Notes under the pieces: generated by a model
Told to the model about the DNA's origin: nothing
The model's database searches: none
What the model saw: the letters and a program-made list of their open reading frames with translations, nothing else
Origin: an uncultured Bacteroidota bacterium
GTDB taxonomy: Bacteria; Bacteroidota; Bacteroidia; 2-12-FULL-35-15
Length of the DNA: 64,000 nucleotides
NCBI GenBank assembly: GCA_903847205.1
Contig: CAINDA010000004.1
Location: 210 to 64,209, forward strand
Direction: 5' to 3'
In this document: in pieces, positions 24,206 through 49,127 of the stretch
Layout of the letters: each line of letters opens with the position of its first letter
Position numbering within the stretch: position 1 is the first letter of the stretch
Translations under genes and position numbers: made by a program

Positions 24206-25846
24206 TTAAAAGCTATCTTCGCACCCCAATTTAGTTTCAGCTGCGGGCGTGGCGTAATTGGCAGCCGCGCCAGACTTAGGATCTGGTGCCTCACGGCGTG
24301 GGGGTTCGAGTCCCTTCGCCCGCACTTCGAGGGAAAGCAGTTCAGAAATGGACTGCTTTTCTTTTTTACCCTCTTCCAAACGACCGTCTTTCCTACAAAT
24401 TAGCTCAACAACTTCGTTCAATTTAGGGGTTCGATAATTTTCATTCTCAAAAACGAGTTTTTCAGGAAACAGCGAACCGATTATTCTTTGTTTTGTTGTT
24501 ATATTTCTTGAAACGTAATAGGTATCGAGTGTTGAAAGCAATTCAAGACACTTATCAATTTTAGACTCGTGATTTTCAAAACCTTCCTTCATTCTGAGTT
24601 CATCTATACTTAACAGTTTAAGTATTTCTTCAATTTCAACTTTCATTTCTTTAAACTCGCTTGCCATAATTTCGCCATCGAGCATGAGGTCTTTTGCATT
24701 TTTAAGTCTTTGCTTCTGTTTTTCAATTTCCTTAGTTATTTTAACAAAAGCAACTTTACCAGTAATGTTGCTTTGTTTCAATCTGCTTTTTAATACTTGG
24801 GCATATAAATTCATAGCCTTTGGTTTAGCTTTAATATCGGCCAATAAACTAGCAAAACCATCATTCACAACTTGAGCTTTTTGACGTTCCTTGCAAGTGC
24901 GGTCGCAATGGTAATAATAGAATTTACCACCTGCTCTTCCAGTTGAAGCAGATGCTGTTAAATTTTTATTGCAACGAGGACAAATTAAAAAGCCTCTTAA
25001 TGGAAACTCATCTCTAACAGTTTTAAATTTATTTGGTAATTTCTTTTTCCTTCCTTCAATAATATCCTGTACGGTGTAAAACGTAACTAAATCAATTATT
25101 GGTTCATGTATTCCTTCAACCCATTGTGCGGGCTCGTCTTTATATGATTTGACAAGAATTTTCCCTATATAACCCTTGTTCCTCAATAGCATCCAAAAAG
25201 AATTACGGTTGCATTTTAAACCTTCTTTATTTAGCTTTCTTCTTAACTCTTCAATGTTATATAATCCGGAGGCAAACTCTTTAAAAGCTTTCATGACCAG
25301 TTCTTGCTGCTTACCGCCTTCTGGCGCAATAATTGGTCGATTGTTTTCATCACGAGTGTTGATATATCCTCGCAAACAACTTCCTAACCAACGCCCTTCT
25401 TTTTTTGCCCGCCTAATTCCATGAAATACATTTAAAGCTCTGCGATCGTTATCGACTTCAGGGGCAGCAAGATATATAGCAAGCATAATTTTACTTTCGG
25501 GAATTTCAAAATCTAAAGGTTGTTCAATTGCTTGAGGTTCAACACCGAGTTTCTTTAAATCTCTTATGGTGATGTATGCTTCAGCTACGTTACGAGAAAA
25601 TCTATCCCACTTTAAGAAAATAATATTTTCTACATAACCTCGATTCTTTTTTATGAATCCAAGTATTTTAATCCATTCAGGTCGGTTAAAAGTTTTACCA
25701 CTTTCATCATCGTGGTAGAATCCAACTATATCAATGTCATTATTTTCACAATACTTATTGAGCTTGTCTTTTTGGTCGGCCGGACTATATCCATTATTTT
25801 GTTCATCTGTTGATACACGTGTGTAAATAATGGCTCTACGTTTCAT
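24206..25846 (-). CDS. large serine recombinase (resolvase/invertase catalytic domain + recombinase domain + zinc-ribbon + coiled coil)
   Basis: 546-aa ORF. AIIYTRVSTDEQ (catalytic Ser context), SRFSRN, recombinase domain, CPRCNKNL...YYYHCDRTC zinc ribbon. The last roughly 54 codons are read across attL and antisense to tRNA-Leu, so the true or functional C-terminus is uncertain. Confidence 0.85.
   Translation of the reverse strand: MKRRAIIYTRVSTDEQNNGYSPADQKDKLNKYCENNDIDIVGFYHDDESGKTFNRPEWIKILGFIKKNRGYVENIIFLKWDRFSRNVAEAYITIRDLKKLGVEPQAIEQPLDFEIPESKIMLAIYLAAPEVDNDRRALNVFHGIRRAKKEGRWLGSCLRGYINTRDENNRPIIAPEGGKQQELVMKAFKEFASGLYNIEELRRKLNKEGLKCNRNSFWMLLRNKGYIGKILVKSYKDEPAQWVEGIHEPIIDLVTFYTVQDIIEGRKKKLPNKFKTVRDEFPLRGFLICPRCNKNLTASASTGRAGGKFYYYHCDRTCKERQKAQVVNDGFASLLADIKAKPKAMNLYAQVLKSRLKQSNITGKVAFVKITKEIEKQKQRLKNAKDLMLDGEIMASEFKEMKVEIEEILKLLSIDELRMKEGFENHESKIDKCLELLSTLDTYYVSRNITTKQRIIGSLFPEKLVFENENYRTPKLNEVVELICRKDGRLEEGKKEKQSISELLSLEVRAKGLEPPRREAPDPKSGAAANYATPAAETKLGCEDSF
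24243..24324 (+). tRNA. tRNA-Leu (anticodon TAG), intact; integration target of the island
   Basis: Hand fold. Acceptor GCGGGCG/CGCCCGC, anticodon arm CCAGA-CTTAGGA-TCTGG (anticodon TAG), long variable arm (tgcctcacggcgt), T arm GGGGG-TTCGAGT-CCCTT, discriminator A. 82 nt. Confidence 0.85.
24322..24370. repeat. attL direct repeat (last 3 nt of tRNA-Leu + terminator)
   Basis: See the island entry; 48/49 identical to 49079..49127. Confidence 0.85.
24334..24367 (+). terminator. tRNA-Leu terminator hairpin (part of the attL direct repeat)
   Basis: aaagcagt(24334-41) loop tcagaaatgg actgcttt(24352-59), followed by tcttttttacc. Confidence 0.7.
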
Positions 25847-25858
25847 AGTATTATGTTT

Positions 25859-26068
25859 TTATGTTTTGTTTCTATTCTTAAATTCTATTGCACCTGCATC
25901 ATTGTTTTCATTTTCTATTTCGTATGCTTCAATCGCTATATCTGCAATGTGATACAACCAATCTCTTATTTTAATAATTTGTTCTTCAGTATATTCAACG
26001 CCATCACCGCTGAGTATTTTTTTACACTCAGCTAATGACAATCTGCTATTTCCTTCGCCGGAACTCAT
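25859..26068 (-). CDS. small hypothetical protein directly upstream of the recombinase gene (possible accessory/directionality factor; speculative)
   Basis: 69 aa, 12-nt gap to the recombinase start, same strand. Pattern LSLAECKKILS..VEYTEEQIIKIRDWLYHIADIAIEAY resembles the ORF at 46567..46773. Confidence 0.4.
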   Translation of the reverse strand: MSSGEGNSRLSLAECKKILSGDGVEYTEEQIIKIRDWLYHIADIAIEAYEIENENNDAGAIEFKNRNKT

Positions 26069-26775
26069 ACTATTCGGGGTCGGTTAAATAGATTGTTTGG
26101 CGAAAAAAAGAACGAAAATATAGCGTTTTTTAAATCTTCTATATTTGATGTAAATATAATGACAATCAACAAGTTACAAGGCATTTTAAATAAAATAAAA
26201 TCAACTGTTAACTGATTAGGAATCAGAACTTGCATTGATTTTGTTTGATTATATTTTATTATTACGCTCATGTTTCGCTTTTGCTTTGCAAAAGTGCCTG
26301 TGTTTTTTTTAAGGCATTTTAAAATTGTGTAATCGAATGAACTATTCGATATATTAATTTAGTTTGATATTAATCTCCCTATTCAATGGCTTTTACAAAT
26401 ATTTTATGAGACTTAATTTTTTATGGATGACTGCGTTAAGAGCCGAAAACAAATATCCGTAGAACCGGACAGAGAAAATAAATAAGGTTAAATTGGGTAT
26501 AATATAGTATAAAATTATCGCAATAGTTTTTTAAAATCGTCAATTGACGGTTCATTTATTGCTCACTTGACGGTTCATGAAACATCAATTGCATCACCTA
26601 TTCACACCAAATTATTACAGGTGCAATTAATAAACATTGTCTTGGAATTAGGAAACATTAAAATTGCAATTAAAGAAGATTAAAATAAATGAACCTAGTT
26701 ACAATGCCCTTTGCTTTTGGTTCATTCTGTTTTTTTAATTCCTTGCTGATTAAAATAACATCTAAATAAATAATT

Positions 26776-26970
26776 ATGGGACGAGGAATATTTTTAACGA
26801 TAAAAGATTTGATGATACTTACCGGGAGTTTAAGTTATAATAGTAGCGCTTACAGTCACTTAGGAATTCGATCAGCAATAGCACATCGAAAAAGAAAATT
26901 AACTATAAAAGAATATTGCGAGTATGAAAAAATTGATTTTGAATATGTTTGGAATTACTTAAGAGGGTAA
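26776..26970 (+). CDS. small hypothetical protein (possible HTH)
   Basis: 64 aa: FLTIKDLMILTGSLSYNSSAYSHLGIRSAIAHRKRKLTIKEYCEYEKI. No recognisable family from sequence alone. Confidence 0.3.
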   Translation: MGRGIFLTIKDLMILTGSLSYNSSAYSHLGIRSAIAHRKRKLTIKEYCEYEKIDFEYVWNYLRG

Positions 26971-27086
26971 ATATTTATGATATTACCTTTATATGTAGGA
27001 TAAACCCAGATAATTAGGGTTTTTGATATACCTAACAGTGTAAAGAATTACACCCTCGTTCACGAATTAAAATCAAACTGTATTAA

Positions 27087-27172
27087 TTGAAAAACAATTG
27101 CGTAGCAATTAAGAAGTAATTGAAAAACTATGTAAAACAATTAAAAAAAATTAGAAATGTGTAGGCTTTTTA
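27087..27172. repeat. copy A of an about 90-bp direct repeat rich in CAATTG-like motifs
   Basis: ttgaaaaacaattgcgtagcaattaagaa--gtaattgaaaaactatgtaaaacaattaaaaaaaattagaaatgtgtaggcttttta aligns with 28266..28362 (about 90 percent identity, one 9-11 bp indel). Confidence 0.8.
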
Positions 27173-27372
27173 ACCAATTGAATATAGGTATTGGCATTCG
27201 ATTGGATGCTTTCTTCAAAGAGTTATCATTATTTTCGGTTTAATTTATTTACCTACCATTTAATTTATTTCCGGGTAATTAAAAAACAATTGTGTAGCAC
27301 TTTTTCTTCGAACCACTCTTTTTTGTTTGTTGTCTCCAGTATCATAAAATGCAAGTTTCGGCAATAAACGCT

Positions 27373-28110
27373 TTATCTTGCCACAGTTTGGTGACTCTTT
27401 TTCAGCATCGATTCAAATGTATCCAAGTTGTATCTCCTGCGGGCGTAACGTTTAGCCTTATTAATATTAATATTATATTTTTCAAATGCGGTTTGATAAA
27501 TGTATTCCAATTCGTCCTGTTGTGCAGAAAGTAAATCGCTATCTACAATACAATCTACAAGTAATTTCTCTATAGAAATCGTTTCAATATTATCAATTGT
27601 AATAGTTGGTGCTTCTGTAATAAGTGGCTTTACAATAATATTTTCGCCAAAATTATTTCCGTACCGTTCTAATGTTTTTTTATCCGGATTAAGAAATACA
27701 TTTTTGTACTTCTCAGATAGCCTATGGAATACGCTTTCAACGCCTTCTCGCTCTGTTTCAATTACAATATAAAATCGATTAATTTGATGAACCATAAATC
27801 CGTTCAACCATCGAGTATCCCAAATGCAGAAATTTAAATAGGGCAATTCTTTTTTTATACGATGATGTAATTTTTTTAGCTGTGCCGAAATAGGAGGATG
27901 GAAGGAGCCTTTGTCCTTGAATGAATACAGGCCTCGGCTGACATGGATTAATTCTCCGGCTTCTTTTAGTAAATGAATTTTCCACGAAATAGTACTTTCA
28001 GGCGCCTTGGGCTTTTTGCTCTTTATAAAGTCAAAAAGCTCTTTGGTAGAAACTTCTGATCTACTTCTGAAGTGTTTATTAATATTTTGAATTAATGCCT
28101 TATCTGTCAT
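27373..28110 (-). CDS. AbiEi-like winged-helix protein (pattern resembles DUF6577-type Bacteroidota proteins)
   Basis: 245 aa. N-terminal wHTH-like STKELFDFIKSKKPKAPESTISWKIHLLKEAGELIHVSRGLYSF (the ..V/I.RG.Y motif shared with AbiEi-family antitoxins). No toxin partner adjacent. Confidence 0.55.
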   Translation of the reverse strand: MTDKALIQNINKHFRSRSEVSTKELFDFIKSKKPKAPESTISWKIHLLKEAGELIHVSRGLYSFKDKGSFHPPISAQLKKLHHRIKKELPYLNFCIWDTRWLNGFMVHQINRFYIVIETEREGVESVFHRLSEKYKNVFLNPDKKTLERYGNNFGENIIVKPLITEAPTITIDNIETISIEKLLVDCIVDSDLLSAQQDELEYIYQTAFEKYNININKAKRYARRRYNLDTFESMLKKSHQTVAR

Positions 28111-28265: not shown

Positions 28266-28362
28266 TTAGAAAACAATTGAGTAGCAATTAAGAACTATAT
28301 AAGAAGCAATTGAAAAACTATGTAAAACAATTAAAAAACATTAGAAAAGTAAATGCTTTTTA
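28266..28362. repeat. copy B of the about 90-bp direct repeat, in the hsdR upstream region
   Basis: See 27087..27172. Ends about 95 nt before the hsdR ATG at 28457. Confidence 0.8.
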
Positions 28363-28456
28363 GCTCTTTGGATATATTAAGGATAATCTATTGCGTATTT
28401 CTTTCAAAAACAAATCATTACCTACCGCTTTTTTGCGTATTTTTCTGCCTAAGTAT

Positions 28457-31400
28457 ATGGCAGAATCGAATTTTACATATCTCGAAAATGAATTCCCTCT
28501 ATTATTCAACTTGGCGCAATCTGCCGAGTATAATTTATATTCCGATTCTGCGGTTTGTATTTTTAAATTAAGAGCATTCGGAGAGAAACTTACAGAAGTC
28601 CTTTTCGAAAAACACAGATTGAGTTTTCCATTTAAAAACACTTTCCACAATCGGTTAAAAACATTAGAGTTTGAGGGGATTCTTCCGGAGCAAGTAAAAG
28701 ATCTTCTATTCATTGTTAAGAATAAAGGGAATGATGCGGTTCATGAAAATAAAGGTTCAGTTGAAGATGCTAAATTTTTATTACAGGAAGTATTTAAGAT
28801 AGCCAAATGGTTTTACGAAACATACTCCATCGCCAACCAAGATTTAAAAGAAGTAAGATTTACCTGCCCTGAAAATCTGGATGCCCGACATGCATTGCAC
28901 GTCCTAGAAAATGACTTTAAGCAACTTGAAGATAAATTTAGCAAGCTATTAAAAGAACGTCAGGAAGTTGCTTTACCTGCTGAGGTAGTAAAAGAAATTA
29001 AACAACGTTCGGTAAAGGCTGCCAGCAAAATTGAAATGTCGGAGGCTGATACACGTGAATTGATAGATGAACAATTACGACAAGCAGGGTGGGAAGCCGA
29101 TACAAAAAATATAAATTACAAGAAAAACAAAACGCTTCCTAAGCGTGGTAAGAAGTTAGCTATTGCAGAATGGAAAATCGGAGATAAATGGGCTGACTAT
29201 GCTTTATTCATTGGAACACAATTATACGGTATTGTCGAGGCAAAAAAATACGCCCTTGATATTTCTACCGATTTACGTCAATCAAAAATATATGCTGAGT
29301 TAATTGAAGAGGATAAAAACACGAAGTTATTGGGCAGATGGGGCAATTATAAAGTACCATTTTTATTTTCTACTAATGGCAGACCCTATCTGGAGCAAAT
29401 AAAAACTAAAAGTGGAATTTGGTTTTTAGATGTTAGAAAAGAAAGAGGTATTTCTCGTCCTTTAAGAGGCTGGTATTCTCCAGAAGGCTTGATTAAGTTA
29501 ATGGAGCAGGACACTGAGGATGCAAATAAAAAATTGGTTGAATCTGACACTGATTTTTTGATGCATAAAAAAGGTCTAGGACTTCGTGAATATCAAATTG
29601 ACGCGATTAAAGCCGTTGAAAATAGAATTATTCAAAAGCCTGATGATAGAAGAGCTTTAATTGCAATGGCAACCGGTACAGGTAAAACGAGAACCATAAT
29701 GGGTTTGTGTTATCGTTTAATTAAATTGAATAGGTTTAAGCGCATATTGTTTTTAGTTGACAGAACTTTGCTGGGAATCCAAGCAATTAATGCTTTCAAG
29801 GATAATAAAATTGAAGGCATCAATACTTTTTCGGATACCTACATTGTTAAAGGGTTAAAAGAAAACGTACCCGATATTGATACCCGCTTGCATTTTGCTA
29901 CTGTTCAGGGAATGGTGAAACGCATACTATACAGCGATAACGAAGAAGAAAAAATTCCGGTAGATACTTATGATTGTATAATTATTGATGAGGCTCATCG
30001 TGGTTATTTAATAGATAAAGAAATTGATGAAGCTGATTTAGAGTTTAAAGATCAGCGAGACTATGTAAGTAAATACAGAATGGTAATTGATTACTTCGAT
30101 GCCTTTGCCATTGGGCTTACTGCAACGCCTGCTCTTCATACAACTGAAATATTCGGTCTTCCTGTTTATACTTATTCCTACCGTGAAGCAGTAGTTGATG
30201 GTTATTTAATAGATCATGATCCTCCATTTAAAATAAAAACCAAGCTAAGTGAAGAAGGAATTAAATGGCTGAAAGGAACCAAACCTAAAGGTTATGATAA
30301 AGAAACTAATTCTATTGTAGAGTTAGCTGAATTACAAGATGAACTTGAAATTGATATTGCAGGGTTTAATAAATTAGTAATTACAGAAAGCTTTAACAAA
30401 ACAGTAATTAAAGAATTAGTTAAGCACCTCGATCCTGAAAGCCTTGAAAAGACATTGATTTTTGCTGCCACCGATGAACATGCCGATTTAGTTGTAAAAT
30501 GCTTAAAAGAAGGGTTTGGTGAAATTGGAGTTGATGTGCCGGATGATGCTATCCAAAAAATTACCGGAAAATCCTACGATCCTATTGAACAAGTTAAACG
30601 TTATAAAAACGAAAAATATCCAAACATTGCAGTTACTGTTGATTTATTAACTACCGGTATTGATGTTCCTGCTATTGTAAATATTGTATTTCTACGCCGG
30701 GTAAAATCACGAATTTTATATGAGCAGATGCTGGGACGCGCAACAAGATTGTGTGATGAGATAGGAAAAGAATCATTTAAAATTTATGATGCTGTTCGTT
30801 TGTATGAAACTTTGCAGGATTATACACAAATGAAACCTGTATCTCCCAATCCCAATACAACCTTTGAACAATTAAAAAACGAATTAGGACAGATTGATAA
30901 TAACGATCGGGCAAAAAAACAAATAGAACAAATTATTGCAAAACTACAGCGAAAAAAGAAAATCATAAAAGACAATGAAGCTTTTAAATATAATGCCGAA
31001 GGAAAAGACCCGGAAAGTTTTATTCACACGCTGAGAAACCTGCCTATAAACGAAGGCGTGAACAAAATCAATCAACTTTCAGGGCTTTGGAAGTTTTTAG
31101 ATGAATTAAAACCATCTCCTTCCGTTCAATTAGTTTCCGAACACTTAGATGAATACAGGGGCATGGAGCAAGGTTATGGCAATGGACAAAAACCTGCGGA
31201 TTATTTAGAAAGTTTTAAGACATTCATCACTGAAAATAGCAATAAAATTACCGCTCTAAATATTATTTGTACACGTCCTAAAGAGCTCGACAGAAAATCA
31301 TTACGCGAAGTCAAAATTGTTTTAGACCAAGCCGGATTTAATACACGCTTTTTGCACGCGGCTTGGAAAGATGCAAAAAATGAAGACATTGCTGCTGATA

Positions 31401-31696
31401 TTATTTCTTATATCCGCACATTGGCTTTAGGCAGTTCTTTAATAAGTCATGAAGAACGAATTCAAAAAGCTGTGGATAAAGTTCGTAAGATGAAAGAATG
31501 GAACGTGATTCAAAAAAAATGGCTCGACCGTTTTGAAAAGCAATTAATACAAGAAACCGTATTGCATACCGATGACCTAAATACTTCACCATTTAATGAA
31601 GATGGAGGATTTAAAAGATTAGATAAAATTTTTGAAAACCAATTGCAGCAAGTAATTGATACGATAAATGAAAATCTTTATAAAGAAATTGCGTAA
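28457..31696 (+). CDS. hsdR: Type I restriction enzyme R subunit with N-terminal DUF4145/HEPN-like extension
   Basis: The ORF track starts at 28391. The likely start is MAESNFTYLENEF (ATG 28457). N-terminal domain ..AVCIFKLRAFGEKLTEVLF...LLFIVKNKGNDAVHE. PD-(D/E)xK nuclease ADYALFIG...GIVEAKKY. Helicase motifs MATGTGKT, IIIDEAHR, TATP, VDLLTTGIDVP, QMLGRATR. Confidence 0.9.
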   Translation: MAESNFTYLENEFPLLFNLAQSAEYNLYSDSAVCIFKLRAFGEKLTEVLFEKHRLSFPFKNTFHNRLKTLEFEGILPEQVKDLLFIVKNKGNDAVHENKGSVEDAKFLLQEVFKIAKWFYETYSIANQDLKEVRFTCPENLDARHALHVLENDFKQLEDKFSKLLKERQEVALPAEVVKEIKQRSVKAASKIEMSEADTRELIDEQLRQAGWEADTKNINYKKNKTLPKRGKKLAIAEWKIGDKWADYALFIGTQLYGIVEAKKYALDISTDLRQSKIYAELIEEDKNTKLLGRWGNYKVPFLFSTNGRPYLEQIKTKSGIWFLDVRKERGISRPLRGWYSPEGLIKLMEQDTEDANKKLVESDTDFLMHKKGLGLREYQIDAIKAVENRIIQKPDDRRALIAMATGTGKTRTIMGLCYRLIKLNRFKRILFLVDRTLLGIQAINAFKDNKIEGINTFSDTYIVKGLKENVPDIDTRLHFATVQGMVKRILYSDNEEEKIPVDTYDCIIIDEAHRGYLIDKEIDEADLEFKDQRDYVSKYRMVIDYFDAFAIGLTATPALHTTEIFGLPVYTYSYREAVVDGYLIDHDPPFKIKTKLSEEGIKWLKGTKPKGYDKETNSIVELAELQDELEIDIAGFNKLVITESFNKTVIKELVKHLDPESLEKTLIFAATDEHADLVVKCLKEGFGEIGVDVPDDAIQKITGKSYDPIEQVKRYKNEKYPNIAVTVDLLTTGIDVPAIVNIVFLRRVKSRILYEQMLGRATRLCDEIGKESFKIYDAVRLYETLQDYTQMKPVSPNPNTTFEQLKNELGQIDNNDRAKKQIEQIIAKLQRKKKIIKDNEAFKYNAEGKDPESFIHTLRNLPINEGVNKINQLSGLWKFLDELKPSPSVQLVSEHLDEYRGMEQGYGNGQKPADYLESFKTFITENSNKITALNIICTRPKELDRKSLREVKIVLDQAGFNTRFLHAAWKDAKNEDIAADIISYIRTLALGSSLISHEERIQKAVDKVRKMKEWNVIQKKWLDRFEKQLIQETVLHTDDLNTSPFNEDGGFKRLDKIFENQLQQVIDTINENLYKEIA

Positions 31697-32259
31697 TGAG
31701 ATCACGAGATATTATCATAATTGCATTAATCGCAATCATTTTAGTTTTAGGTTGGTTTTTTTTTAATGAAATGAAAAAAAATGAGCTGAAAGAAAAAATG
31801 ATTAGAAGACTCACAGATGAAAATGATGAGCTGAAAAAAGGTTATCTTGATTTATTACAAAAACATTTATTACTCTCTGAAAACACTCCCAAAGATATAA
31901 TAGCAGACATTGAACGATTAAAAGATCAAGTTGTTAATCTCAGTAAAGATGTACATATAGAGTTAGGTTCTGTTATTGATAATGTACGAAATAACAATGG
32001 AGCAAAAGCAGTAAGAGAATTAGGGAAAATTATTGAAAATGTTCTTAAAGAAAAAGCTATAAAAGATGAAAGTTTTAAGAAAACTCCAAGTCTCTTTAAC
32101 CTACTAGAATATGCTAAAAATTGCCATTGGATAAAACCCAATATTCATGCGTATGGAGAATTAATTAGAGAAATAAGAAATAAGGAAAGCCATGATTTAA
32201 ATGTACAAATAGAACCGCATAAAATTGGTTTAGCCATTTTTATGCCGGCATCGACATAA
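31696..32259 (+). CDS. membrane-anchored coiled-coil protein with C-terminal DUF4145/HEPN-like domain (R-x4-H motif)
   Basis: 187 aa. The ATG shares one nt with the hsdR TAA (TAATG). TM helix IIIIALIAIILVLGWFFF, heptad-like KEKMIRRLTDENDELKKGYLDLLQK. C-terminal GAKAVRELGKIIENVLKE...YGELIREIRNKESHD. Confidence 0.55.
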   Translation: MRSRDIIIIALIAIILVLGWFFFNEMKKNELKEKMIRRLTDENDELKKGYLDLLQKHLLLSENTPKDIIADIERLKDQVVNLSKDVHIELGSVIDNVRNNNGAKAVRELGKIIENVLKEKAIKDESFKKTPSLFNLLEYAKNCHWIKPNIHAYGELIREIRNKESHDLNVQIEPHKIGLAIFMPAST

Positions 32260-32281
32260 TGTTTAGTTTAAACGCATTGAT

Positions 32282-40301: not shown

Positions 40302-41559
40302 TCAGTCGCTAATTAGTGTTTATGAATATGGCTTTCTTCAAGTTGGAGAAGAGTATAATAACGTAAGGTTCACCGAAACAACTTATAAGGAGCTAGCAAA
40401 ATACTTAACCGCCAATAAAAATTGCGGTTATTATTCTTTGTTATATAACAAAATACGATTTGCAAATTATGTAGGAGTTATCAAAGTGGGCGATATAACA
40501 ATTGAAATATTACCTAAAATAGAAAAAGCAGAAAACGATGAAAAAACATGGCGTAATGCACTCATCAAAATGCTTTACATTAGTTTACAAGTGGAAGCTA
40601 ATACTACTACTTTAGCTGATATTAATGTTAATCAACAAAGTGTATTATCCACTTATATTAATCTGTTTTTAACCGAAACTGAGACACTCCTGCATAAAGG
40701 TTTAATTAAAAAATACAAAAAAGAACAAGGCAACAAAACTGCATTAAAAGGGAAATTAGTTTTCACAAAACACATAACGCAAAACCTTACCCATGCTGAA
40801 CGTTTTTATGTTGAGTACAACGATTATAATAGGGACAATGTTTACAATTTCATTCTTCGAGCAGCAGTAGAGTGCATCATAAAAATTGACCCTTCGTTTT
40901 ATTTAACCAATAAAGCTAAAACGGTATTAAACTTATTGCCGGAATGCAGCCCGGTCAAAATAAGCGAATCTCTATTTTCTAAATTAAAATACGACCGTAA
41001 AACCGATGGCTACAAAACATCAATTGAGCTGGCAAGAATAATATTATTAAACTATCATCCTGATGTAAAATCGGGTAGTAATAATATTCTAGCTATTATG
41101 TTTGACATGAATTTACTTTGGGAAAACTATATGTATTACATGCTCAAACGTGCTGGAAATGAATACGGAGTTGAGATTTCAGGACAGCAAAAAAAACATT
41201 TCTGGCATCATGAAGACGATTGGGATCTAAGGTTAAAACCCGATTTAGTTCTTTCTAAAGGAGGTACAAACATTGTAATCGACACTAAATGGAAATACGA
41301 TTCTCAAATTTCCATTCAAGATGTAAGACAAATTTATGCCTACGGTGATTACTTTACAGCGTCAAAAAATTATTTGATGTACCCGGATAAATTGGAAAAA
41401 GGTGAAATAGAAATTAGAGAAGGACGTTTTTACGAAGCAGATTCCGAAAATAATTTTAAAGACAAAGCGTGTAGTTTAATGTATATTGATATTATTAAAG
41501 AAAATGGCTTGAATATGGAAATTGGTAATTCCATTTTAGCAAAATTGTTTTCCAATTAA
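40288..41559 (+). CDS. mcrC: McrC-like nuclease subunit
   Basis: 423 aa, 14-nt overlap with mcrB. C-terminal PD-(D/E)xK LRLKPDLVLSKGGTNIVIDTKWKY. Confidence 0.75.
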   Translation: MKMLNQSLISVYEYGFLQVGEEYNNVRFTETTYKELAKYLTANKNCGYYSLLYNKIRFANYVGVIKVGDITIEILPKIEKAENDEKTWRNALIKMLYISLQVEANTTTLADINVNQQSVLSTYINLFLTETETLLHKGLIKKYKKEQGNKTALKGKLVFTKHITQNLTHAERFYVEYNDYNRDNVYNFILRAAVECIIKIDPSFYLTNKAKTVLNLLPECSPVKISESLFSKLKYDRKTDGYKTSIELARIILLNYHPDVKSGSNNILAIMFDMNLLWENYMYYMLKRAGNEYGVEISGQQKKHFWHHEDDWDLRLKPDLVLSKGGTNIVIDTKWKYDSQISIQDVRQIYAYGDYFTASKNYLMYPDKLEKGEIEIREGRFYEADSENNFKDKACSLMYIDIIKENGLNMEIGNSILAKLFSN

Positions 41560-41608: not shown

Positions 41609-43162
41609 CTATTTCTCAATTGTAGCTATCGGCGTTCCTGCAAGCCCTTCTTTTACGAGATAAGCTATAAATTTCGCAAACAATTGAATGTCTGAGCCAG
41701 CGCTTGCTTTTTCAAGTGCGTTCATATATGTTTTGCGTTCCTCAACTGGTACAACTGTCCAAGGATATCCGCCAGATGCAAGCATTACATTCATTAAAAA
41801 GCGTCCCATACGGCCGTTACCATCCATATATGGATGTATGAACACAAATATAAAATGACCTAATACTGCCCTAACCGAAGCTTCTTTTTCGTTTTGCAAT
41901 AATTCAAAAAACACAGGCATTGCATCTCGAACAGCATCTTGATTCAAAGGCACATGTTTCGATTGGCCAATATATACTTGTCCATTTCTGTAACCGGCCA
42001 AATCAGAAGCTTTTAATATACCGGCCGTAACACTTGGGGCAAATAATTCTCTATACCAATCTCCATGATCGGTGTCCGCGATTTCCCCCGCATTAGCACC
42101 ATCAAGTATTTTTTTGATACTTCCCCATACTTTTTGAGTTGCCTGCCAGTAGCCCCGCGCAGCCATAGCATCCCGCTGCCTTTTATCTTCAGCATTATTT
42201 TTTGAATCCCATCCGCCGCTTTTCACCCGTTCAATCAGTTCGGCGGTAACCCTGTATCTTTCTATGGATAAGGAATGATAGGCATCTGTGACATATATTT
42301 CTTCTACAAGCTTCATGTATCTTTTATGATCTTTCGGTAAGCCCGGAGCTTTCGGAAAATGAGTTATAACTATGTCTCTCATTTCATGCCACATTAATTT
42401 TATCCTGTTCACATACGGAGACCTTTCCCTTGAGGATAAAGCAATTGGAGTTTTGTTTTCAAAAGGGTCTGTTTCACGCACATCATAACCGGCAGCTTGC
42501 ATTGTTTTCATTATTTCATCAGCAATTTTTTCTTGTCCGATATTCCTGAAAGCGCCAGCCAATCGTCCGGCAATTGTACTATGCCCGCCATCCAGCAGCA
42601 ATCCCAATACTTCAGAAGCATTCCTTATCATAGCAAGACCTGTTCGCGCATCTGTTGCTTTTTTATCAAACATTGAAGGCGTACAATGGATAAGTGCAGA
42701 CGGAAGGGTTAATATCCTTAATCCACCTATAATTTGAATTTCGGCTGCTTGGGGCAATGAAGATTTCATTGTTACCAATGATGTTTTATTAGGCAGTGGA
42801 GTAATTCCGTTAGGGCCGGCCAATGAGCGTATAATAAGTTGGTGCGGTACTGTATGATCGCCAGTGTGCAGCTGCAATGATTGATCGGCTGAAATGCAAT
42901 AAGAATCACCATATCTGTCTGCTAAATATTCGGCGCAAAACTGCCAGTAGGAAGCATACCAAGAAGTGCTGTCACCCTGTTCCTCATCAGTAGATACTGA
43001 TAGATACCAGCCTTTCATTACTTCCTTCAAAAACTTATTTTCAATCAAACGTTCTCTATGAACCCTGCTTAGTGCAGATGTTTTAATTGCAATGATTCCT
43101 TGATCTTGAAGCTTTTTAAGAATCTCCAGTGATTCTGCTAATTTTTCTCCCGGTGTTGTCAT
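41609..43162 (-). CDS. Fic/DOC family protein with long N-terminal extension
   Basis: 517 aa. Fic core HFIFVFIHPYMDGNGRMGRFLMN (HxFx[D/E]GNGRxxR). Upstream SLSIER resembles a degenerate inhibitory (S/T)xxxE(G/N) helix. By eye the gene is more G+C-rich than its neighbours. Confidence 0.85.
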   Translation of the reverse strand: MTTPGEKLAESLEILKKLQDQGIIAIKTSALSRVHRERLIENKFLKEVMKGWYLSVSTDEEQGDSTSWYASYWQFCAEYLADRYGDSYCISADQSLQLHTGDHTVPHQLIIRSLAGPNGITPLPNKTSLVTMKSSLPQAAEIQIIGGLRILTLPSALIHCTPSMFDKKATDARTGLAMIRNASEVLGLLLDGGHSTIAGRLAGAFRNIGQEKIADEIMKTMQAAGYDVRETDPFENKTPIALSSRERSPYVNRIKLMWHEMRDIVITHFPKAPGLPKDHKRYMKLVEEIYVTDAYHSLSIERYRVTAELIERVKSGGWDSKNNAEDKRQRDAMAARGYWQATQKVWGSIKKILDGANAGEIADTDHGDWYRELFAPSVTAGILKASDLAGYRNGQVYIGQSKHVPLNQDAVRDAMPVFFELLQNEKEASVRAVLGHFIFVFIHPYMDGNGRMGRFLMNVMLASGGYPWTVVPVEERKTYMNALEKASAGSDIQLFAKFIAYLVKEGLAGTPIATIEK

Positions 43163-43480: not shown

Positions 43481-43539
43481 TGAGGATGCCTACCTTTGAT
43501 TTACGTATTTAAAACGTAAATCAAAGGTAGGCATCCTCA
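43481..43539. repeat. perfect 26-bp inverted repeat with 7-nt loop
   Basis: tgaggatgcctacctttgatttacgt(43481-43506) atttaaa acgtaaatcaaaggtaggcatcctca(43514-43539). No flanking T-run on either strand. Confidence 0.95.
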
Positions 43540-43654: not shown

Positions 43655-44260
43655 TTATTTTTCTTTTAAAAGTGAAAAAAGAAAATCGCTGATGTTTGCC
43701 GGAGCAAGTTTTATGTCGTTCATAAGCTTCTTTCTATCTTCTTTATATAGTAATTCCTTTATTTTTTTCACTGTTTTGGGTTCTAAATTTTCCGTGCCTA
43801 ATTCTTCCAGCGCCTGAATTATCAAACTGCTTAATTTGCCCTCCATTACCAACTTTTTAGGAGTAGTGGGCTTAAATTTTATGGTGCTTTTTCCGATTTT
43901 TATTACACGTGCCTGACCATCTGTTATATAAACCAATTTCATTGGAATCTGAGTTGTGAGCCCTAATTTATGCAAAGCATAAGCTCCAACAGGCTTTATA
44001 CGAATATGTTCCTTTTTAGCAATAGCTTCAGCAATACTTTCCAACGATGGCATAAGCTCACCTAATACTGGATCAACTTTGGGCAGCAAATAGACTCCAT
44101 GTGCTATCCGTTTAATTCCTCCGGTTTTACATATTCTGGATAAGGATTGCCGGATAGCCGCATCCGAACCCATTCCCCGAAAATCTGATAGGAAATATAA
44201 TTGTCCGGCTCTACTTTTAGCTAGTTCTATTTCGATTTCTTTTTGTACTTCTGAACTCAT
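43655..44260 (-). CDS. AbiEi-family antitoxin-like protein (DUF6088-type)
   Basis: 201 aa. DAAIRQSLSRICKTGGIKRIAHGVYLLPK...IKPVGAYALHKLGLTTQIPMKLVYITDG...IKFKPTTPKKL...IQALEELG matches the DUF6088/AbiEi pattern. Confidence 0.65.
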   Translation of the reverse strand: MSSEVQKEIEIELAKSRAGQLYFLSDFRGMGSDAAIRQSLSRICKTGGIKRIAHGVYLLPKVDPVLGELMPSLESIAEAIAKKEHIRIKPVGAYALHKLGLTTQIPMKLVYITDGQARVIKIGKSTIKFKPTTPKKLVMEGKLSSLIIQALEELGTENLEPKTVKKIKELLYKEDRKKLMNDIKLAPANISDFLFSLLKEK

Positions 44261-44522: not shown

Positions 44523-45281
44523 ATGAAAGTCCAATACTGCTCAGATTTACATCTTGAGTTCCCTGAAAATAGGGCGTATCTGAAAAAGAATCCGCTAATT
44601 CCGATTGGCGAAATTCTTTTGCTGGCTGGGGATATTTTGCCCTTAACTTTAATTAATAAGCCATGCGATTTTTTTGATTATGCCTGCGATAACTTTAAAC
44701 AGGTGTATTGGATTCCGGGGAATCACGAGTATTATAATTACGATATTAAAGATGTTCCAAAACCTTTGAATGAAAAAATCAAAGAAAATCTCTTTTTAGT
44801 AGATAACCAGCAGCTGAAAATTAATGATGTCAATTTTATTTTTTCAACTCTTTGGAGCCATATTAATGAGCAAAACAGATGGAAGATACAACAAAACGTT
44901 TCTGATTTTTTTGTTATAAAAAATCATGGCAGTAATTTATCAGTATTAGAATTTAATGAATTTCATAAATCAAGTTTGATTTTTTTAAGTGATGCTCTCA
45001 CTCAAACTGAAAAGGAAAAACAAGTTGTGATTACACATCATGTTCCCACACTTTTGAATTATCCAGCACAGTATAAAAACAGTCCAATTAACGAAGCATT
45101 TGCTACCGAGTTATTTGATTTTATTACCGGATTTACAGCAGACTATTGGATTTATGGTCATCACCACTCAAACACACCGCCATTTAAAATTGGTGAAACG
45201 GAAATGCTAACCAACCAATTAGGCTATGTAAGTCATAATGAAAACAGGCTGTTTCAGCTAAATGCGTATTTTGAAATTTAG
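44523..45281 (+). CDS. calcineurin-like metallophosphoesterase
   Basis: 252 aa. CSDLHLEF, LLLAGDI, IPGNHEYY, VITHHVP, IYGHHH motifs. Confidence 0.8.
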   Translation: MKVQYCSDLHLEFPENRAYLKKNPLIPIGEILLLAGDILPLTLINKPCDFFDYACDNFKQVYWIPGNHEYYNYDIKDVPKPLNEKIKENLFLVDNQQLKINDVNFIFSTLWSHINEQNRWKIQQNVSDFFVIKNHGSNLSVLEFNEFHKSSLIFLSDALTQTEKEKQVVITHHVPTLLNYPAQYKNSPINEAFATELFDFITGFTADYWIYGHHHSNTPPFKIGETEMLTNQLGYVSHNENRLFQLNAYFEI

Positions 45282-45512: not shown

Positions 45513-46106
45513 ATGGGATTAAGCATTGATTATAGCGGTAGTTTTAAAAAAGAAGCTTCATTAGAAGCAATGATTGAGGAAGTAAAAGATATTGTCGAAA
45601 TTTATGAATGGAAATACACTATCAATAGCACTCGTTTTCCGAAAAACACAATCGGTAAAATAGAGTATGATGGTAAACTATATGGTATTTCCTTTACTCC
45701 ACCCGATAGCGAAACTATTTCCTTAACTTTTTTATCAAATGGTAAAATGTGTTGCGGAGCCAGATTAGAATTTTTTGGCAATTCTGATAATGAAAATGAT
45801 AAATTGTATTTATACATGTTGTGTTCAAAAACCCAATATGCAGGAAGTACCATTCACAAAATAATTATTCATTTGCTCAGGTATTTAAGCGAAAAATATT
45901 TTCAGGACTTTCAACTTACCGATGAAGGCGCTTATTGGGAAACAGGAGATGAAGAACTTTTAGAAAAGAATTTTAAAGCTTACAATGCTTTAGTAGATGG
46001 GTTTGTGCATTCAGTAAAGAATTACCCAATTAATACTGCCGAATCGTTTACCGAGTATTTTGAAAGAATAATGAAAATGCTTGATGAAAAAAGAAACAGG
46101 AAGTGA
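45513..46106 (+). CDS. hypothetical protein, no recognisable domain
   Basis: 197-aa ORF with ordinary composition, same strand as the metallophosphoesterase gene. No motif recognised. Confidence 0.5.
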   Translation: MGLSIDYSGSFKKEASLEAMIEEVKDIVEIYEWKYTINSTRFPKNTIGKIEYDGKLYGISFTPPDSETISLTFLSNGKMCCGARLEFFGNSDNENDKLYLYMLCSKTQYAGSTIHKIIIHLLRYLSEKYFQDFQLTDEGAYWETGDEELLEKNFKAYNALVDGFVHSVKNYPINTAESFTEYFERIMKMLDEKRNRK

Positions 46107-46473: not shown

Positions 46474-46552
46474 TGCTTAGGTTCCTGATTAAATCACTTA
46501 AAATGAACATATTATTTGAGGTAAATTTAGAGTTTTAAAATAGTATAGATTA
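46474..46552. repeat. left copy of an about 80-bp direct repeat flanking the AbiE cassette
   Basis: tgcttaggttcctgattaaatcacttaaaatgaacatattatttgaggtaaatttagagttttaaaatagtatagatta versus 48912..48992 (about 90 percent identity). Confidence 0.85.
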
Positions 46553-46566: not shown

Positions 46567-46773
46567 ATGAAAAGCAGAAAAAACAACAATCTAAATTTTT
46601 TAAACTCGGTAGATAAAAACGAACTAACCATAGAAAAGCTGCGCACATACTCAGGCTTTGAGGATGTGAGCGAAGATGAAGCAAAAGAACATATAAAGCT
46701 CATTAAAACCTTTGCAAGGGTGTTGTTTGATGTTTACAAGAACGACCAAATAAAAGAATCAGTAAAAACCTAA
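46567..46773 (+). CDS. small hypothetical protein (pattern-similar to 25859..26068)
   Basis: 68 aa: LTIEKLRTYSGFEDVSEDEAKEHIKLIKTFARVLFDVY. Confidence 0.4.
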   Translation: MKSRKNNNLNFLNSVDKNELTIEKLRTYSGFEDVSEDEAKEHIKLIKTFARVLFDVYKNDQIKESVKT

Positions 46774-46944
46774 TATAGATGATCGGTAACCCTTTCTTTC
46801 CCATTAAACTGATGCCAAGCGGAGTAATTAACAATATGTCCACTATATCCCGCATACTTTAGAAGTAGACAATTTATCATAAAGTGAAAACGTTTTGTGA
46901 TATAATGAAATTATTTATTACATTTGATTGCCTTTTAATACACT

Positions 46945-46969
46945 ATAAACCCCATTTATTAGGGTTTAT
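46945..46969. promoter_or_regulatory. 8-bp inverted repeat just upstream of abiEi (candidate autoregulatory operator)
   Basis: ataaaccc(46945-52) catttatta gggtttat(46962-69), 17 nt before ATG 46986. AbiEi proteins are known to autoregulate via promoter inverted repeats. Confidence 0.35.
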
Positions 46970-46985
46970 TTACAAACAAAAAGTA

Positions 46986-47786
46986 ATGTCAAGAAGCACC
47001 TACATATCTGAAAATTTAACACAGAATCATCTGGATTTTATTAGATTTTTAGATGATGAGGAGGTAGATATTTTTTCTCTAAAAGAGATTGAAAAACTTA
47101 CTAAAGGCAAGGTGAAAAATTTGAATGAGGTAATTGAAAATTTGGTTCACAAAAAAGTTCTTTCAAGAATAGAAAGAGGTAAATATTGTCGTTCCAATTT
47201 CAGAGACGAATTGGTTATTGGATGCCGTTTAGCAAATGATGGTATTGTTTCTTATTGGACGGCATTAAATAAACACGGACTAACGGAACAGTTTTCAAAC
47301 ACTATATTTATTCAAACAACCAAGGTAAAAGCAGGTAAAATTGTTTTTGGTGTAAAGTATCAGTTTGTTAAAATAGCATCTTCAAAACGCGCCGGCATTA
47401 TTAACGAAGGTTATGGAAATCACCGTTACCAAATTACTGATATTGAAAAAACAATTGTTGATTGTTTCGACTTGCCGCAATATTCCGGTGGATATGCTGA
47501 ACTTATCAGAGCATTTAATCAAACAAAATTAAATGCTGAGAAAATGATAGACTATTGTAATGCGATTCATAATATTGCCGCAACAAAGCGCATGGGGTAT
47601 TTAGCTGAACTTTTAGATAAAAAAGGCATGAAATCTTTTGTACGATTTGCACAAAACCAAATAAATCTAAAATATAATCTATTTGATCCCAAAAGTGGAG
47701 AAAATGGGGAGTTTGTAAACGACTGGCGATTACGCTTGAATATTAGCAAAGAGGAAATTTTAGACATCTGTAACAAGCAGTATTAA
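46986..47786 (+). CDS. abiEi: type IV toxin-antitoxin system AbiEi family antitoxin
   Basis: The ORF track starts at 46884. Likely start MSRSTYISENL (ATG 46986). wHTH (LVHKKVLSRIERGKYC) plus C-terminal domain (YWTALNKHGLTEQ, TDIEKTIVDCFD). Followed after an 18-nt gap by abiEii. Confidence 0.8.
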   Translation: MSRSTYISENLTQNHLDFIRFLDDEEVDIFSLKEIEKLTKGKVKNLNEVIENLVHKKVLSRIERGKYCRSNFRDELVIGCRLANDGIVSYWTALNKHGLTEQFSNTIFIQTTKVKAGKIVFGVKYQFVKIASSKRAGIINEGYGNHRYQITDIEKTIVDCFDLPQYSGGYAELIRAFNQTKLNAEKMIDYCNAIHNIAATKRMGYLAELLDKKGMKSFVRFAQNQINLKYNLFDPKSGENGEFVNDWRLRLNISKEEILDICNKQY

Positions 47787-47804
47787 TAGAGTTCCAAGCA
47801 AAAA

Positions 47805-48665
47805 ATGATTTTACAAAAAGAAATAATTAAAGCAGCGGAAGCCATTGGTGTATCAAAAAGCACAATTGATAAAGATTGGGTTTTGGGGCATTTTTTGGCG
47901 GCAATATATTCTGAACCTGAATTAAAAGAAAGTTTAATTTTTAAGGGCGGTACTTGTTTGAAAAAATGTTATTTCCCAGACTACCGTTTTTCTGAAGACC
48001 TTGATTTTACTTCTCGAAAAAAAGATTTTAAACTTACGAAAAAGCACGTTCAATTTATTTGTGAAGAATTAAAACAAAAAGCAGAAATTTTAACGCACGT
48101 AGAATCTATTCGCCCATTATTATTTAAAGATGAACATACAGGGTACGAAGTAATTATTAAGTTTTGGGGAGCCGACCATCCTCGTAATGAAGCTCCACCA
48201 CCAGCAGATAGATGGCAAACAAAAATTAAGATTGAAATTATTTTATATGAATTAATGCTATTTAAAGAAGTTGAAAAGGAAATTTCACACAACTATTCCG
48301 ACAGTTTAACCATTGAACCAAATCTTATTCCTTGTTACGCAATTGAAGAGGTTTTAGCTGAAAAACTAAGAGCTTTAATACAGCGCTCATACACAGCACC
48401 ACGTGATTTTTATGATATTTGGTATTTACAAAAAAATTATCCCAACTTGGATTTTAAGGAAATAGTAAATGCCTTCCATCATAAAATGAAATTTAAAAAT
48501 TTGGAGTTTACAGCTGTATCTCAATTAATAAATGATAAAAACGATATAAAGCTCCGTGATAGTTGGAAAAACAGTTTAGCGCATCAAATACAGGTGGCAG
48601 CATTACCCGATTTTGAAACAGTAAAAAAAGAACTTTTAGAATTATTTAATAAAATATTAAAATAA
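47805..48665 (+). CDS. abiEii: nucleotidyltransferase AbiEii/AbiGii family toxin (DUF1814)
   Basis: 286 aa. FKGGTCLKKCYFPDYRFSEDLDFT is the hallmark NTase motif. EEVLAEKLRALIQR...PRDFYDIWYL. Confidence 0.85.
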   Translation: MILQKEIIKAAEAIGVSKSTIDKDWVLGHFLAAIYSEPELKESLIFKGGTCLKKCYFPDYRFSEDLDFTSRKKDFKLTKKHVQFICEELKQKAEILTHVESIRPLLFKDEHTGYEVIIKFWGADHPRNEAPPPADRWQTKIKIEIILYELMLFKEVEKEISHNYSDSLTIEPNLIPCYAIEEVLAEKLRALIQRSYTAPRDFYDIWYLQKNYPNLDFKEIVNAFHHKMKFKNLEFTAVSQLINDKNDIKLRDSWKNSLAHQIQVAALPDFETVKKELLELFNKILK

Positions 48666-48696
48666 AATATATCATCTAAATTTTTTACAAATAATA

Positions 48697-48935
48697 ATGA
48701 CCGCAATCTATTCGACAAGTTCAAAGGAATAATTGAACACATGAAAGACTTGTATGCTTTTCATGCTGTGGTTGGGTATTTCCGGTCATTAGGCTATTTT
48801 GCTTTACAACCAACCTCATTTACAAAATATCAAAGACATTAAAATATTGGGTTGAGAAAGGTGTTTTGCAATTCATAAATGATTTAATGACAGGAAAAAT
48901 TGAAGTTAGAGTGCTTAGGTTCCCGATTTAAATCA
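48697..48935 (+). pseudogene. degraded remnant of a larger gene (N-terminal fragment, two frames)
   Basis: Frame a: DRNLFDKFKGIIEHMKDLYAFHAVVGYFRSLGYFALQP... then stop. Frame b: WVEKGVLQFINDLMTGKIEVRVLRFPI then stop. Resembles N-termini of PLD/helicase-type defence proteins, but too short to assign. Confidence 0.3.
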
Positions 48936-48992
48936 CTTAAAATGAACCTGTTATTTGCGGTAAATTTAGAGTTTTAAAATAGGATAAGATTA
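48912..48992. repeat. right copy of the about 80-bp direct repeat flanking the AbiE cassette
   Basis: See 46474..46552. Confidence 0.85.
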
Positions 48993-49078
48993 ATCAGGAT
49001 TAGCTTTTAGAAAGGAATACAGATTGACCAAAGTATCAATATCTTTTAAAAGAGTGTTTGAGATTTGGTCGCTAGGTT

Positions 49079-49127
49079 GCACTTCAAGGGAAAGCAGTTC
49101 AGAAATGGACTGCTTTTCTTTTTTACC
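49079..49127. repeat. attR direct repeat (copy of the tRNA-Leu 3' end + terminator hairpin)
   Basis: 48/49 identical to 24322..24370. Confidence 0.85.

Follow-up and report, generated by a model that had tools for sequence, protein, structure and literature searches.

The DNA analysed here is a stretch of 64,000 nucleotides from an uncultured Bacteroidota bacterium (the window; contig CAINDA010000004.1 of assembly GCA_903847205.1, positions 210 to 64,209), in which a 24.76-kb element carrying predicted defence genes lies immediately 3' of a tRNA-Leu gene, with the gene for a large serine recombinase (LSR), and not a tyrosine integrase, at its tRNA-proximal end. This agrees with the preliminary description of the same DNA, which had also reported the tRNA as intact: ARAGORN called tRNA-Leu(tag) at 24243-24325, and Rfam RF00005 matched with its full model at 24243-24324 (plus strand, 52.5 bits). 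The window contains two tRNA genes, the second being a tRNA-Arg(ccg). The 49-bp direct repeats of the earlier account were reproduced at 24322-24370 and 49079-49127; they read GCACTTC[G/A]AGGGAAAGCAGTTCAGAAATGGACTGCTTTTCTTTTTTACC in direct orientation and are identical at 48 of 49 positions, the sole mismatch being G at 24329 against A at 49086. Similarity reaches 59 nt at 93% identity, and the two copies are 24,757 bp apart. In the repeat unit, the last three nucleotides of the tRNA (G71, C72 and A73) are separated by a spacer of 9 nt from a hairpin (11-bp stem, GAAA loop), which is followed by a T-run; the tRNA end, hairpin and T-run had been noted in the preliminary description. Since no more of the tRNA body than these three nucleotides is repeated, this is not a classical tRNA-derived repeat. 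Folded as RNA, the hairpin has a free energy of -21 kcal/mol (z = -5.8), and stem and loop are followed by UCUUUUUU, which gives the whole the sequence features of an intrinsic terminator; a simple consensus terminator scan did not list the hairpin at attL, the left junction of the element. Two copies of the 26-nt hairpin core occur in the window at ≤3 mismatches, compared with none in shuffled sequence. The attL copy of the repeat can be divided into GCAC (24322-24325, plus strand; G71, C72, A73 and one further nucleotide), which we propose as the common core and crossover region, and a putative element-borne P' arm (24326-24370, plus strand) made up of the remaining 8 nt of spacer, the hairpin (24334-24359), the T-run (24360-24367) and ACC.

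The LSR gene (24206-25846, minus strand; 546 aa in its integrated form) had been described as abutting attL; its open reading frame (ORF) in fact reads through the repeat and the antisense strand of the tRNA. Beyond a conserved body of residues 1 to ~495, residues 496-508 (GKKEKQSISELLSLEV) are antisense to the T-run (read as a run of lysines), the hairpin and the spacer, and residues 509-546 are antisense read-through of the tRNA. By its domains and by the site geometry described below, the protein is assigned to the large serine integrases. It matched PF00239 (Resolvase; E = 7e-25, residues 5-153) and PF07508 (Recombinase; E = 1.7e-9), and its score for PF13408 (Zn_ribbon_recom) was 22.3 bits, slightly below the cut-off of 25.3. 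The zinc-ribbon cysteines C289, C292, C314 and C318 are invariant in the homolog alignment, as are R10, S12, D14 and other residues of the catalytic domain in alignments of 36 and 39 sequences. In addition, the protein matches PHROG 95 (integrase), and residues 173-459 match the C-terminal domain of the A118/LI integrase (4KIS). Pfam and PHROG scans detected no tyrosine recombinase or phage-integrase domain in any island ORF scanned, and the LSR is the only recombinase in the island.

The gene appears to be split between the two ends of the element. At attR, the right junction, the gene caller annotated an antisense ORF of 50 aa that reads, in the frame of the LSR, ...GKKEKQSISELLSLEV-QPSDQISNTLLKDIDTLVNLYSFLKANPD. 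Its last part (48990-49082, minus strand; V-QPSDQISNTLLKDIDTLVNLYSFLKANPD), which we take as the P arm, corresponds to 29 detached LSR codons and a stop, remains in frame through the repeat and is homologous to the tails of LSR homologs in the attP form, i.e., with the attachment site of the excised element. Joining the island ends, with the tail placed after residue 508, yields an excised-form LSR of 537 aa, compared with 534-535 aa for the attP-form homologs whose tails resemble the window attR (P0053, P0064, P0068, P0073, P0104 and, in part, P0004). For example, P0073, which adjoins genes like those of integrative and conjugative elements (ICEs), aligns with window 49136-48996 at 49% over 47 aa (E = 3e-7). 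In each of the six attP-form tails, the seventh and eighth positions after the valine (V+7/+8) are [S/P/T]-N, and other tail positions vary. In the window and in two related right ends, L092 and L093, neither the reading frame nor the stop codon of the detached tail has been lost. Since the changes within DQISNTLLKDIDTLV are almost all synonymous, translation of this tail from the excised element is probable. An AlphaFold2 (AF2) model of P0073 is ordered to about residue 485, with long helices at 324-446; the part that the K-run and hairpin encode is modelled as disordered, and the tail forms a low-confidence helix. Read from the sequence, these features place attP inside the LSR ORF, with integration swapping the last 29 codons of the gene.

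The two related right ends bear directly on where the crossover occurs. They were found by a search with the 50-aa attR ORF, which returned two small ORFs (P0361 and P0362) with tails 83% and 76% identical to that of the window, on contigs that represent the right ends of related elements (L092 and L093). In L093, homologs of a 197-aa ORF (79%) and a 68-aa ORF (73%) of the window are followed by the P arm. The P arms of the three elements are alike through ...TTGC-AC and unrelated to the right of it: GCAC is followed by the repeat in the window, by a different terminator and a decayed LSR-tail-like stretch in L092, and by a plain A-tract/hairpin/T-run terminator in L093. Because all three right ends lose homology at GCAC, the junction falls there and not in or after the hairpin. 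The preliminary description had proposed that integration duplicates the terminator; given this divergence, it probably does not. Nor does the pairing of a long repeat with a serine recombinase, regarded there as atypical, seem to be so, as a short core appears to be used in the normal way and the repeat is probably not the core. The model put forward in that description, in which the 49-bp terminator is itself the attachment site, attB (the chromosomal site) and attP are identical over ~49 bp and the terminator is truly duplicated, now appears unlikely. An LSR dimer would bind the hairpin palindrome and cross over in the loop or at the T-run, and several features fit such a site: the stem is a perfect palindrome, the repeat is about the size of an LSR attP, and the LSR genes of the window and of L005, its closest LSR relative, share ~95% identity as far as the T-run and diverge beyond it. 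However, the homology break among the three P arms is misplaced for it, and identity of attP, attB, attL and attR would abolish the directionality of the LSR.

Large serine integrases make a 2-bp staggered crossover at a non-palindromic central dinucleotide within short sites (attP of ~50 bp and attB of ~40 bp), and their excision reaction needs a recombination directionality factor. In the six tRNA arms examined (window, L005, L071, L072, L075 and L077), the sequence GTTCGA occupies the same position, -20 to -15 from the AC of the core, which in the window corresponds to the T-loop of tRNA-Leu (24304-24309, plus strand). A similar motif, GTT[C/T]G[A/G], lies 5 bp farther out, at -25 to -20, in six attP-type arms from four lineages: GTTTGA in the window (49056-49061, plus strand) and L093, GTTCGA in L092, L064 and L080, and GTTCGG in L061. 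The zinc-ribbon-domain (ZD) motif of the A118/LI integrase occupies positions 16-24 in attP and 11-19 in attB, also a 5-bp shift (Rutherford 2013, PMC3783163). We propose that the T-loop and its mimic are the ZD motifs of attB and attP, respectively; by the LI-integrase numbering, the GC of GCAC fits exactly as the centre, and CA or AC would be off by 1-2 bp. On the basis of the homology break and the shift of the T-loop motif, the crossover probably lies within GCAC (tRNA positions 71-74) rather than in the long repeat. A terminator-centred crossover would leave the T-loop mimic, 60-70 bp away, without explanation. If the crossover is in GCAC, the nucleotide corresponding to 24329 is predicted to be G in attP, with ...ACCCTCTTCC after it, and A in attB, with ...ACCATCCTCG after it. 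We had at first favoured crossover in the hairpin loop for the symmetry of the repeat; comparison of the attR sites, together with the position of the T-loop motif, led us to drop it.

To the right of the core, the arrangement seen at attL recurs throughout the family. Twelve arms were aligned on the core AC (window attL and attR, L005, L061, L064, L071, L072, L074-L077 and L080; the P' arm architecture was noted in L005, L061, L064 and L071-L080), and the LSRs behind them are 37-98% identical. All twelve have the order tRNA or P arm, [G/x]xAC, spacer, hairpin, T-run and LSR, and in all of them a strong hairpin (z = -4 to -7) with its T-run stands at a fixed distance of 9 nt from the tRNA end or P arm. 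The stems are unrelated in sequence among the deeper relatives. Native tRNA terminators of similar shape, by comparison, were found 1-11 nt from the tRNA end in a metagenome scan. An invariant spacing at dozens of tRNAs and unrelated hairpins in distant relatives both argue against the terminator as the attachment site, even though the hairpin is near-identical in the window, L001, L003 and L061 despite LSRs that are 63-87% identical. The same observations, a fixed 9-nt distance in 12/12 arms with unrelated stems, support the earlier suggestion that the island may re-supply a terminator to the tRNA. We infer that the hairpin at attL acts as a terminator supplied by the element, on which the LSR reading frame is overprinted in antisense. 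The window and L005 hairpins differ at two stem pairs, both compensatory, and the divergence of spacer plus hairpin (7/34) equals that at the 4-fold sites of the LSR (0.196), a pattern which points to structure-constrained, otherwise neutral evolution of element DNA. Excess divergence between these hairpins had been considered as a sign of host origin and was rejected, since it equals the neutral 4-fold-site rate.

The hairpin was also searched for outside the family. The 26-nt hairpin occurred in 3 of ~185,000 species genomes, two of which represent the same LSR attL; the third, a Cytophagales metagenome-assembled genome, has it after a tRNA-Thr with no LSR apparent directly downstream. A degenerate hairpin query returned 51 metagenome loci, none with an LSR. 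The preliminary description had asked whether the repeat belongs to a generic terminator family; this holds for the shape of the hairpin, which is common, and not for the 49-bp unit, which is specific to these elements. The hairpins at the 51 loci (L010-L060) have the form AAAGCAnnTCAGAAATGGnnTGCTTT, with nn positions that are nearly always complementary, and several lie directly 3' of tRNA genes. A subgroup from anaerobic digesters has the arrangement TTGAC-hairpin-TATTAT, which resembles a promoter with an embedded operator.

More than 3600 relatives of the LSR were detected at E < 1e-20, and residue positions were counted in the top 120 homologs (58-95% identical). A valine stands 37 residues past a conserved YRT anchor in 111 of 115 homologs, and its codon, GTN, is the antisense of A73-C74; GCAC is thus marked by this codon as well as by the left edge of the repeat and the break in homology at attR. 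A peptide antisense to the T-arm (G-[FILV]-E-P and similar) starts at +41 in 88 of 95. Since ~60 different acceptor/T-arm antisense peptides were found among the top 120 homologs, many different tRNAs must be used. For example, the closest LSR (P0001, in L005) is 98% identical over the conserved body and lies at a tRNA-Arg(ccg) in another genome. The family extends to phages: an alignment-based scan of IMG/VR found relatives at 37-47% identity on phage contigs, including a 60-kb contig in the attP form (L080), although a scan of viral contigs with the single LSR protein had given no matches. Carriers in the clade include defence islands and phage or prophage contigs, and one relative lies beside ICE-like genes. 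These LSRs appear to form a large Bacteroidota clade that targets tRNA ends and is apparently undescribed. In the literature, occasional serine recombinases in Elizabethkingia ICEs at tRNA-Leu are mentioned in passing, without a mechanism; in a search of incomplete coverage, no paper was found to describe this clade, T-loop recognition by a serine integrase, or serine integrases that target tRNAs in Bacteroidota. In the wider family, identity with the tRNA is longer in some members, since the arms of two phage contigs (L074 and L076) carry a 12-18-nt tRNA-Arg-like 3' fragment (CCTGTCGAGGTC-AC) left of the core and not the T-loop mimic at -25. The tRNA-Arg(ccg) of the window (9013-9137), a type at which LSR homologs lie elsewhere, is unoccupied here; its antisense matches the read-through tails of P0008 and P0050, and it is followed by an odd T/C-rich hairpin with a T-run within the loop (9108-9137).

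If the repeat is not the core, the copy at attR (49079-49127, imperfect to 49137, with flank to 49142; plus strand) requires another source. This copy is identical at 59 of 60 positions to the 3' end of the LSR gene of L001, whose product is 82% identical to the window LSR, and the match includes 14 nt of coding sequence beyond the T-run. Past the T-run, ACCATCCTCGAAAG at attR encodes F-E-D-G of the L001 LSR, and the window LSR has ACCCTCTTCCAAACG there. Because the match extends into coding nucleotides, the attR copy, in the position of the B' arm, probably represents a relic left by a previous occupant, a related element of the L001 type. The P' arm is identical at 49/49 positions between the window and L001 and at 47/49 between the window and L003, and such strong conservation within the subfamily would account for the near-perfect identity of the two repeats. 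A similar relic is seen in L092, and L093 looks naive. We propose a history of serial occupancy in which an L001-type element at tRNA-Leu decayed by deletion, leaving its terminator and a few tail codons, plausibly kept as the terminator of the tRNA, before the present element integrated at GCAC. L001 itself (6115-6056, minus strand) has only a 16-nt 3' fragment of tRNA-Leu (GTCCCTTCATCCGCAC) before the LSR and terminator, beyond which the sequence is not that of a tRNA; the upstream part of the gene may have been split off by a different element, or the junction may lie within a tandem array.

Taken together, it seems to us probable that a 24.76-kb defence-carrying element was inserted by its LSR at the 3' end of tRNA-Leu through a crossover in GCAC, that it brought its own terminator and that the right-hand repeat copy is a relic. 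The 3' part of the tRNA would be the B arm, its T-arm and acceptor strand forming the left half of attB with the T-loop GTTCGA as the motif for the zinc-ribbon domain. Strand exchange would take place in GCAC, and with the T-loop mimic of attP 5 bp farther out, the sites would have canonical LSR attP/attB geometry. All DNA to the right of the attL core (9-nt spacer, hairpin, T-run and 3' end of the LSR gene) would derive from the element, such that integration would displace the prior terminator of the tRNA and bring a new one. Finally, the last 29 codons would be left at attR, and the LSR would end in the tRNA-antisense read-through.

Several points weigh against this reading. The break point is defined by three attR sites, and the best-fitting centre, GC, is palindromic, which is unusual for an LSR. 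An inverted T-loop-like motif was sought in the right half-sites and none was convincing. The 49-bp repeat is symmetric about the hairpin loop (25 + 24 nt), as expected if the terminator were the site, and this symmetry has to be taken as a coincidence. The hairpin variants (GCAGTTCA... and GCATATCA...) follow neither the LSR phylogeny nor the identity of the tRNA, and within the subfamily of at least 63% identity they are more conserved than neutral DNA, so that mosaicism or an additional constraint is required. For this locus, neither an empty site nor an attP junction or attB could be found. When both flanking proteins were looked up by exact match, only the same contig and two k=31 contigs breaking inside the repeat were returned, and the Logan k=31 contigs of the same sample are uninformative because they break there. 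The nearest relatives (~87% aa identity of flanking genes) lack tRNA-Leu and have different neighbours at both flanks. In the closest of these, the FAA hydrolase of the left flank is 87% identical and the MFS protein of the right flank 85%; a comparison of 24144-24243 and 49128-49217 with L067, L070 and L091 showed that in these relatives a flavodoxin-like gene comes after the FAA hydrolase gene, and pheT after that for the MFS protein. Since tRNA-Leu is present at neither place, the island and tRNA-Leu lie at a rearrangement breakpoint relative to those genomes.

The segment between the repeats is identified by its gene content as a defence island with five systems on one element. A type I restriction-modification (R-M) system, Septu, McrBC, a SoFic-like Fic protein and AbiEi/AbiEii are all predicted within 21 kb by Pfam and PADLOC, in line with the preliminary description, which had called the segment a defence island. 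Directly upstream of the LSR gene and co-oriented with it are two small ORFs of 69 and 68 aa (25859-26271, minus strand) that are conserved beside the LSR in relatives (both in L005-L009, the 69-aa gene also in L063-L065); neither had a family match in domain and PHROG scans, and they are candidate regulators or recombination directionality factors. These are followed by a 64-aa ORF (26776-26970, plus strand), conserved in the core of the P0001 element, and by a DUF6577 protein (27373-28110, minus strand; Pfam E = 3e-72). A ~100-nt direct repeat (27085-27186 and 28275-28376, 79%) flanks the DUF6577 gene, its second copy overlapping the annotated 5' end of hsdR, and may be a duplicated regulatory region. 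The type I R-M system (28391-36122, plus strand; Pfam, and PADLOC REase_I E = 1.5e-212) comprises hsdR (28391-31696), a DUF4145 gene (31696-32259), a PD-(D/E)XK nuclease gene (32282-33205), hsdM (33202-34662) and hsdS (34662-36122). It is followed on the plus strand by Septu, with the PtuA ATPase (36119-37789) and PtuB nuclease (37704-38492; PADLOC E = 1.9e-98 and 8.4e-60), and by a McrBC-type (type IV) restriction system of a McrB-like AAA_5 ATPase and McrC (38565-41559; Pfam AAA_5, McrBC E = 2.9e-63). The SoFic-like Fic-domain protein (41609-43162, minus strand; Pfam Fic, PADLOC SoFic E = 9e-21) lies in a region with a GC content of 0.43, compared with ~0.31 in the remaining island. Between the start of the Fic gene and the stop of a DUF6088 gene (43655-44260, minus strand) is a near-perfect palindrome (43481-43539) with 29-nt arms that are 97% complementary; it folds as DNA into a 26-bp stem (-30 kcal/mol, z = -16) with no T-run and may mark the edge of a module or a site of recombination. 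The right part of the island, all on the plus strand, contains a metallophosphoesterase gene (44523-45281), the 197-aa ORF (45513-46106) and 68-aa ORF (46567-46773) that are conserved at the right end of L093, and the AbiEi/AbiEii abortive-infection (toxin-antitoxin) pair (46884-48665; PADLOC E = 2.7e-91 and 2e-90). A direct repeat of ~75 nt (46474-46547 and 48913-48986, 93% over 59 nt) brackets the 68-aa ORF and AbiEi/AbiEii, and in L093 a 67-aa ORF leads directly into the P arm without an AbiE module. Since the module is missing from L093 and repeat-flanked in the window, it is, relative to L093, a recent insertion at the right end of the island. Outside the island, the window has a 21-nt tandem repeat of 6-7 copies (ATCCTCGAGGATAAGAAGTTA-like; 12628-12774).

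The AbiE insertion, together with the mosaic hairpin variants, reveals recombination within the element family, which raises the alternative that the locus is a fixed, immobile remnant, with an idle LSR and a repeat that arose or was kept by homologous recombination or gene conversion between the terminator-bearing ends of stacked elements. A history of this kind would fit both the break in synteny with the nearest relatives and the absence of the HTH_17 and AAA_25 genes that the closest relative carries. Nevertheless, we regard a remnant as distinctly unlikely: the LSR has an intact ORF and has lost none of the invariant residues of its catalytic and zinc-ribbon domains, the 29 detached codons still form a complete in-frame tail, and the position of an LSR with 98% identity in the conserved body beside another tRNA of a second genome argues for recent mobility, from which the window element is presumed to be mobile at present. 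A further alternative arises because the window comes from a metagenome assembly and the 41-nt block shared by the two ends is exactly where the k=31 contigs from this sample break: the assembler may have joined unrelated contigs through this block. Such an artefact is highly improbable, since the arrangement is found in contigs of both 64.2 kb and 69.4 kb, the same attL architecture occurs in many independent assemblies, and a chimera would not be expected to have an attR tail that continues the reading frame of the LSR at attL and resembles attP-form homologs.

The element combines properties of several known systems. The integrases of A118/LI, Bxb1, phiC31, TP901-1 and SPbeta (SprA) have the same combination of resolvase, recombinase and zinc-ribbon domains with a coiled-coil insert, and the A118/LI integrase (4KIS) and the N-terminal domain of TP901-1 are similar in sequence to the window LSR. 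Like these phage enzymes, the window LSR would use a short core, with an outer motif 5 bp farther from the centre in attP than in attB. Unlike them, it belongs to a clade that targets the 3' ends of many kinds of tRNA rather than a protein-coding gene, its attP lies in the integrase ORF, its P' arm is an overprinted terminator, and the motif is recognisable only in the left half-site. An attachment site within an ORF, with integration changing the C-terminus of the protein, is also found in SSV1-type integrases. In mycobacteriophage BPs, attP lies inside a gene, and the altered C-terminus underlies integration-dependent immunity (PMC4557955). In both cases the integrated and excised forms have different C-termini, as here; in the window, by contrast, the split gene is that of a serine integrase, 29 codons are exchanged and an effect on function is hypothetical. 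Among Bacteroidota islands, the Bacteroides element NBU1 integrates at tRNA-Leu with a tyrosine integrase. The 10K island of Riemerella anatipestifer, also with a tyrosine integrase, lies at a tRNA-Arg and has a 53-bp direct repeat that includes the tRNA end and a terminator hairpin (PMC6764341). The window element resembles such islands in its position at the 3' end of a tRNA that is left intact and in the terminator hairpins of its repeats, and differs in having a serine enzyme, only three repeated tRNA nucleotides and a long repeat that is probably not the core. It works like a tRNA-targeting island and yet lacks both hallmarks of the tyrosine type, the tyrosine recombinase and the repeat of the tRNA body. 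According to a review, integrative and mobilizable elements with serine recombinases have very short repeats and integrate within genes, and the serine transposases TnpX and TndX of Tn4451 and Tn5397 use a GA dinucleotide with very short repeats and no tRNA targeting (PMC5704250). Tn4451 and Tn5397 are likewise non-conjugative elements mobilised by an LSR; their ends, joint and target look alike, which would apply here only if the terminator were the site, whereas the P and B arms of the window differ in the manner of attP and attB.

A broader reading, possible in our view though rather doubtful, joins two statements: that a very large clade of LSRs from Bacteroidota phages and islands reads the universal T-loop and discriminator end of tRNAs as attB, and that the enzyme has a conserved 29-aa amphipathic C-terminal helix in the excised form and tRNA-antisense residues in its place in the integrated form. 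If so, the tail swap could set the direction of recombination or silence the integrase after integration, and the integrated LSR gene would be transcribed head-on into an active tRNA gene. A corollary would be a ratchet, in which the tRNA comes to need the terminator of the element and the relic pre-formats the site for the next one.

In the textbook pairing, tRNA-linked islands have tyrosine integrases, and serine integrases have sites in protein genes. The LSR clade described here breaks with this pairing and appears to target tRNA 3' ends with normal serine-integrase geometry. As judged from sequence comparison, what seems to be new at the level of the family is tRNA-end targeting with canonical LSR geometry, an overprinted element terminator and attP within the gene. 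The overlap of functions is compact, with the integrase ORF overprinted on a donated terminator and attP inside that ORF, and offers a hypothesis of integration-dependent control. The locus also serves as a warning that a long direct repeat flanking an island need not be the recombination core and can instead be left over from serial occupancy. Were the T-loop indeed the motif that is recognised, many tRNAs could be open to enzymes that are almost identical, as the tRNA-Leu of the window and the tRNA-Arg of its 98%-identical relative would illustrate. Such use of many tRNAs bears on the spread of defence islands in Bacteroidota and on the search for serine integrases with conserved landing sites.

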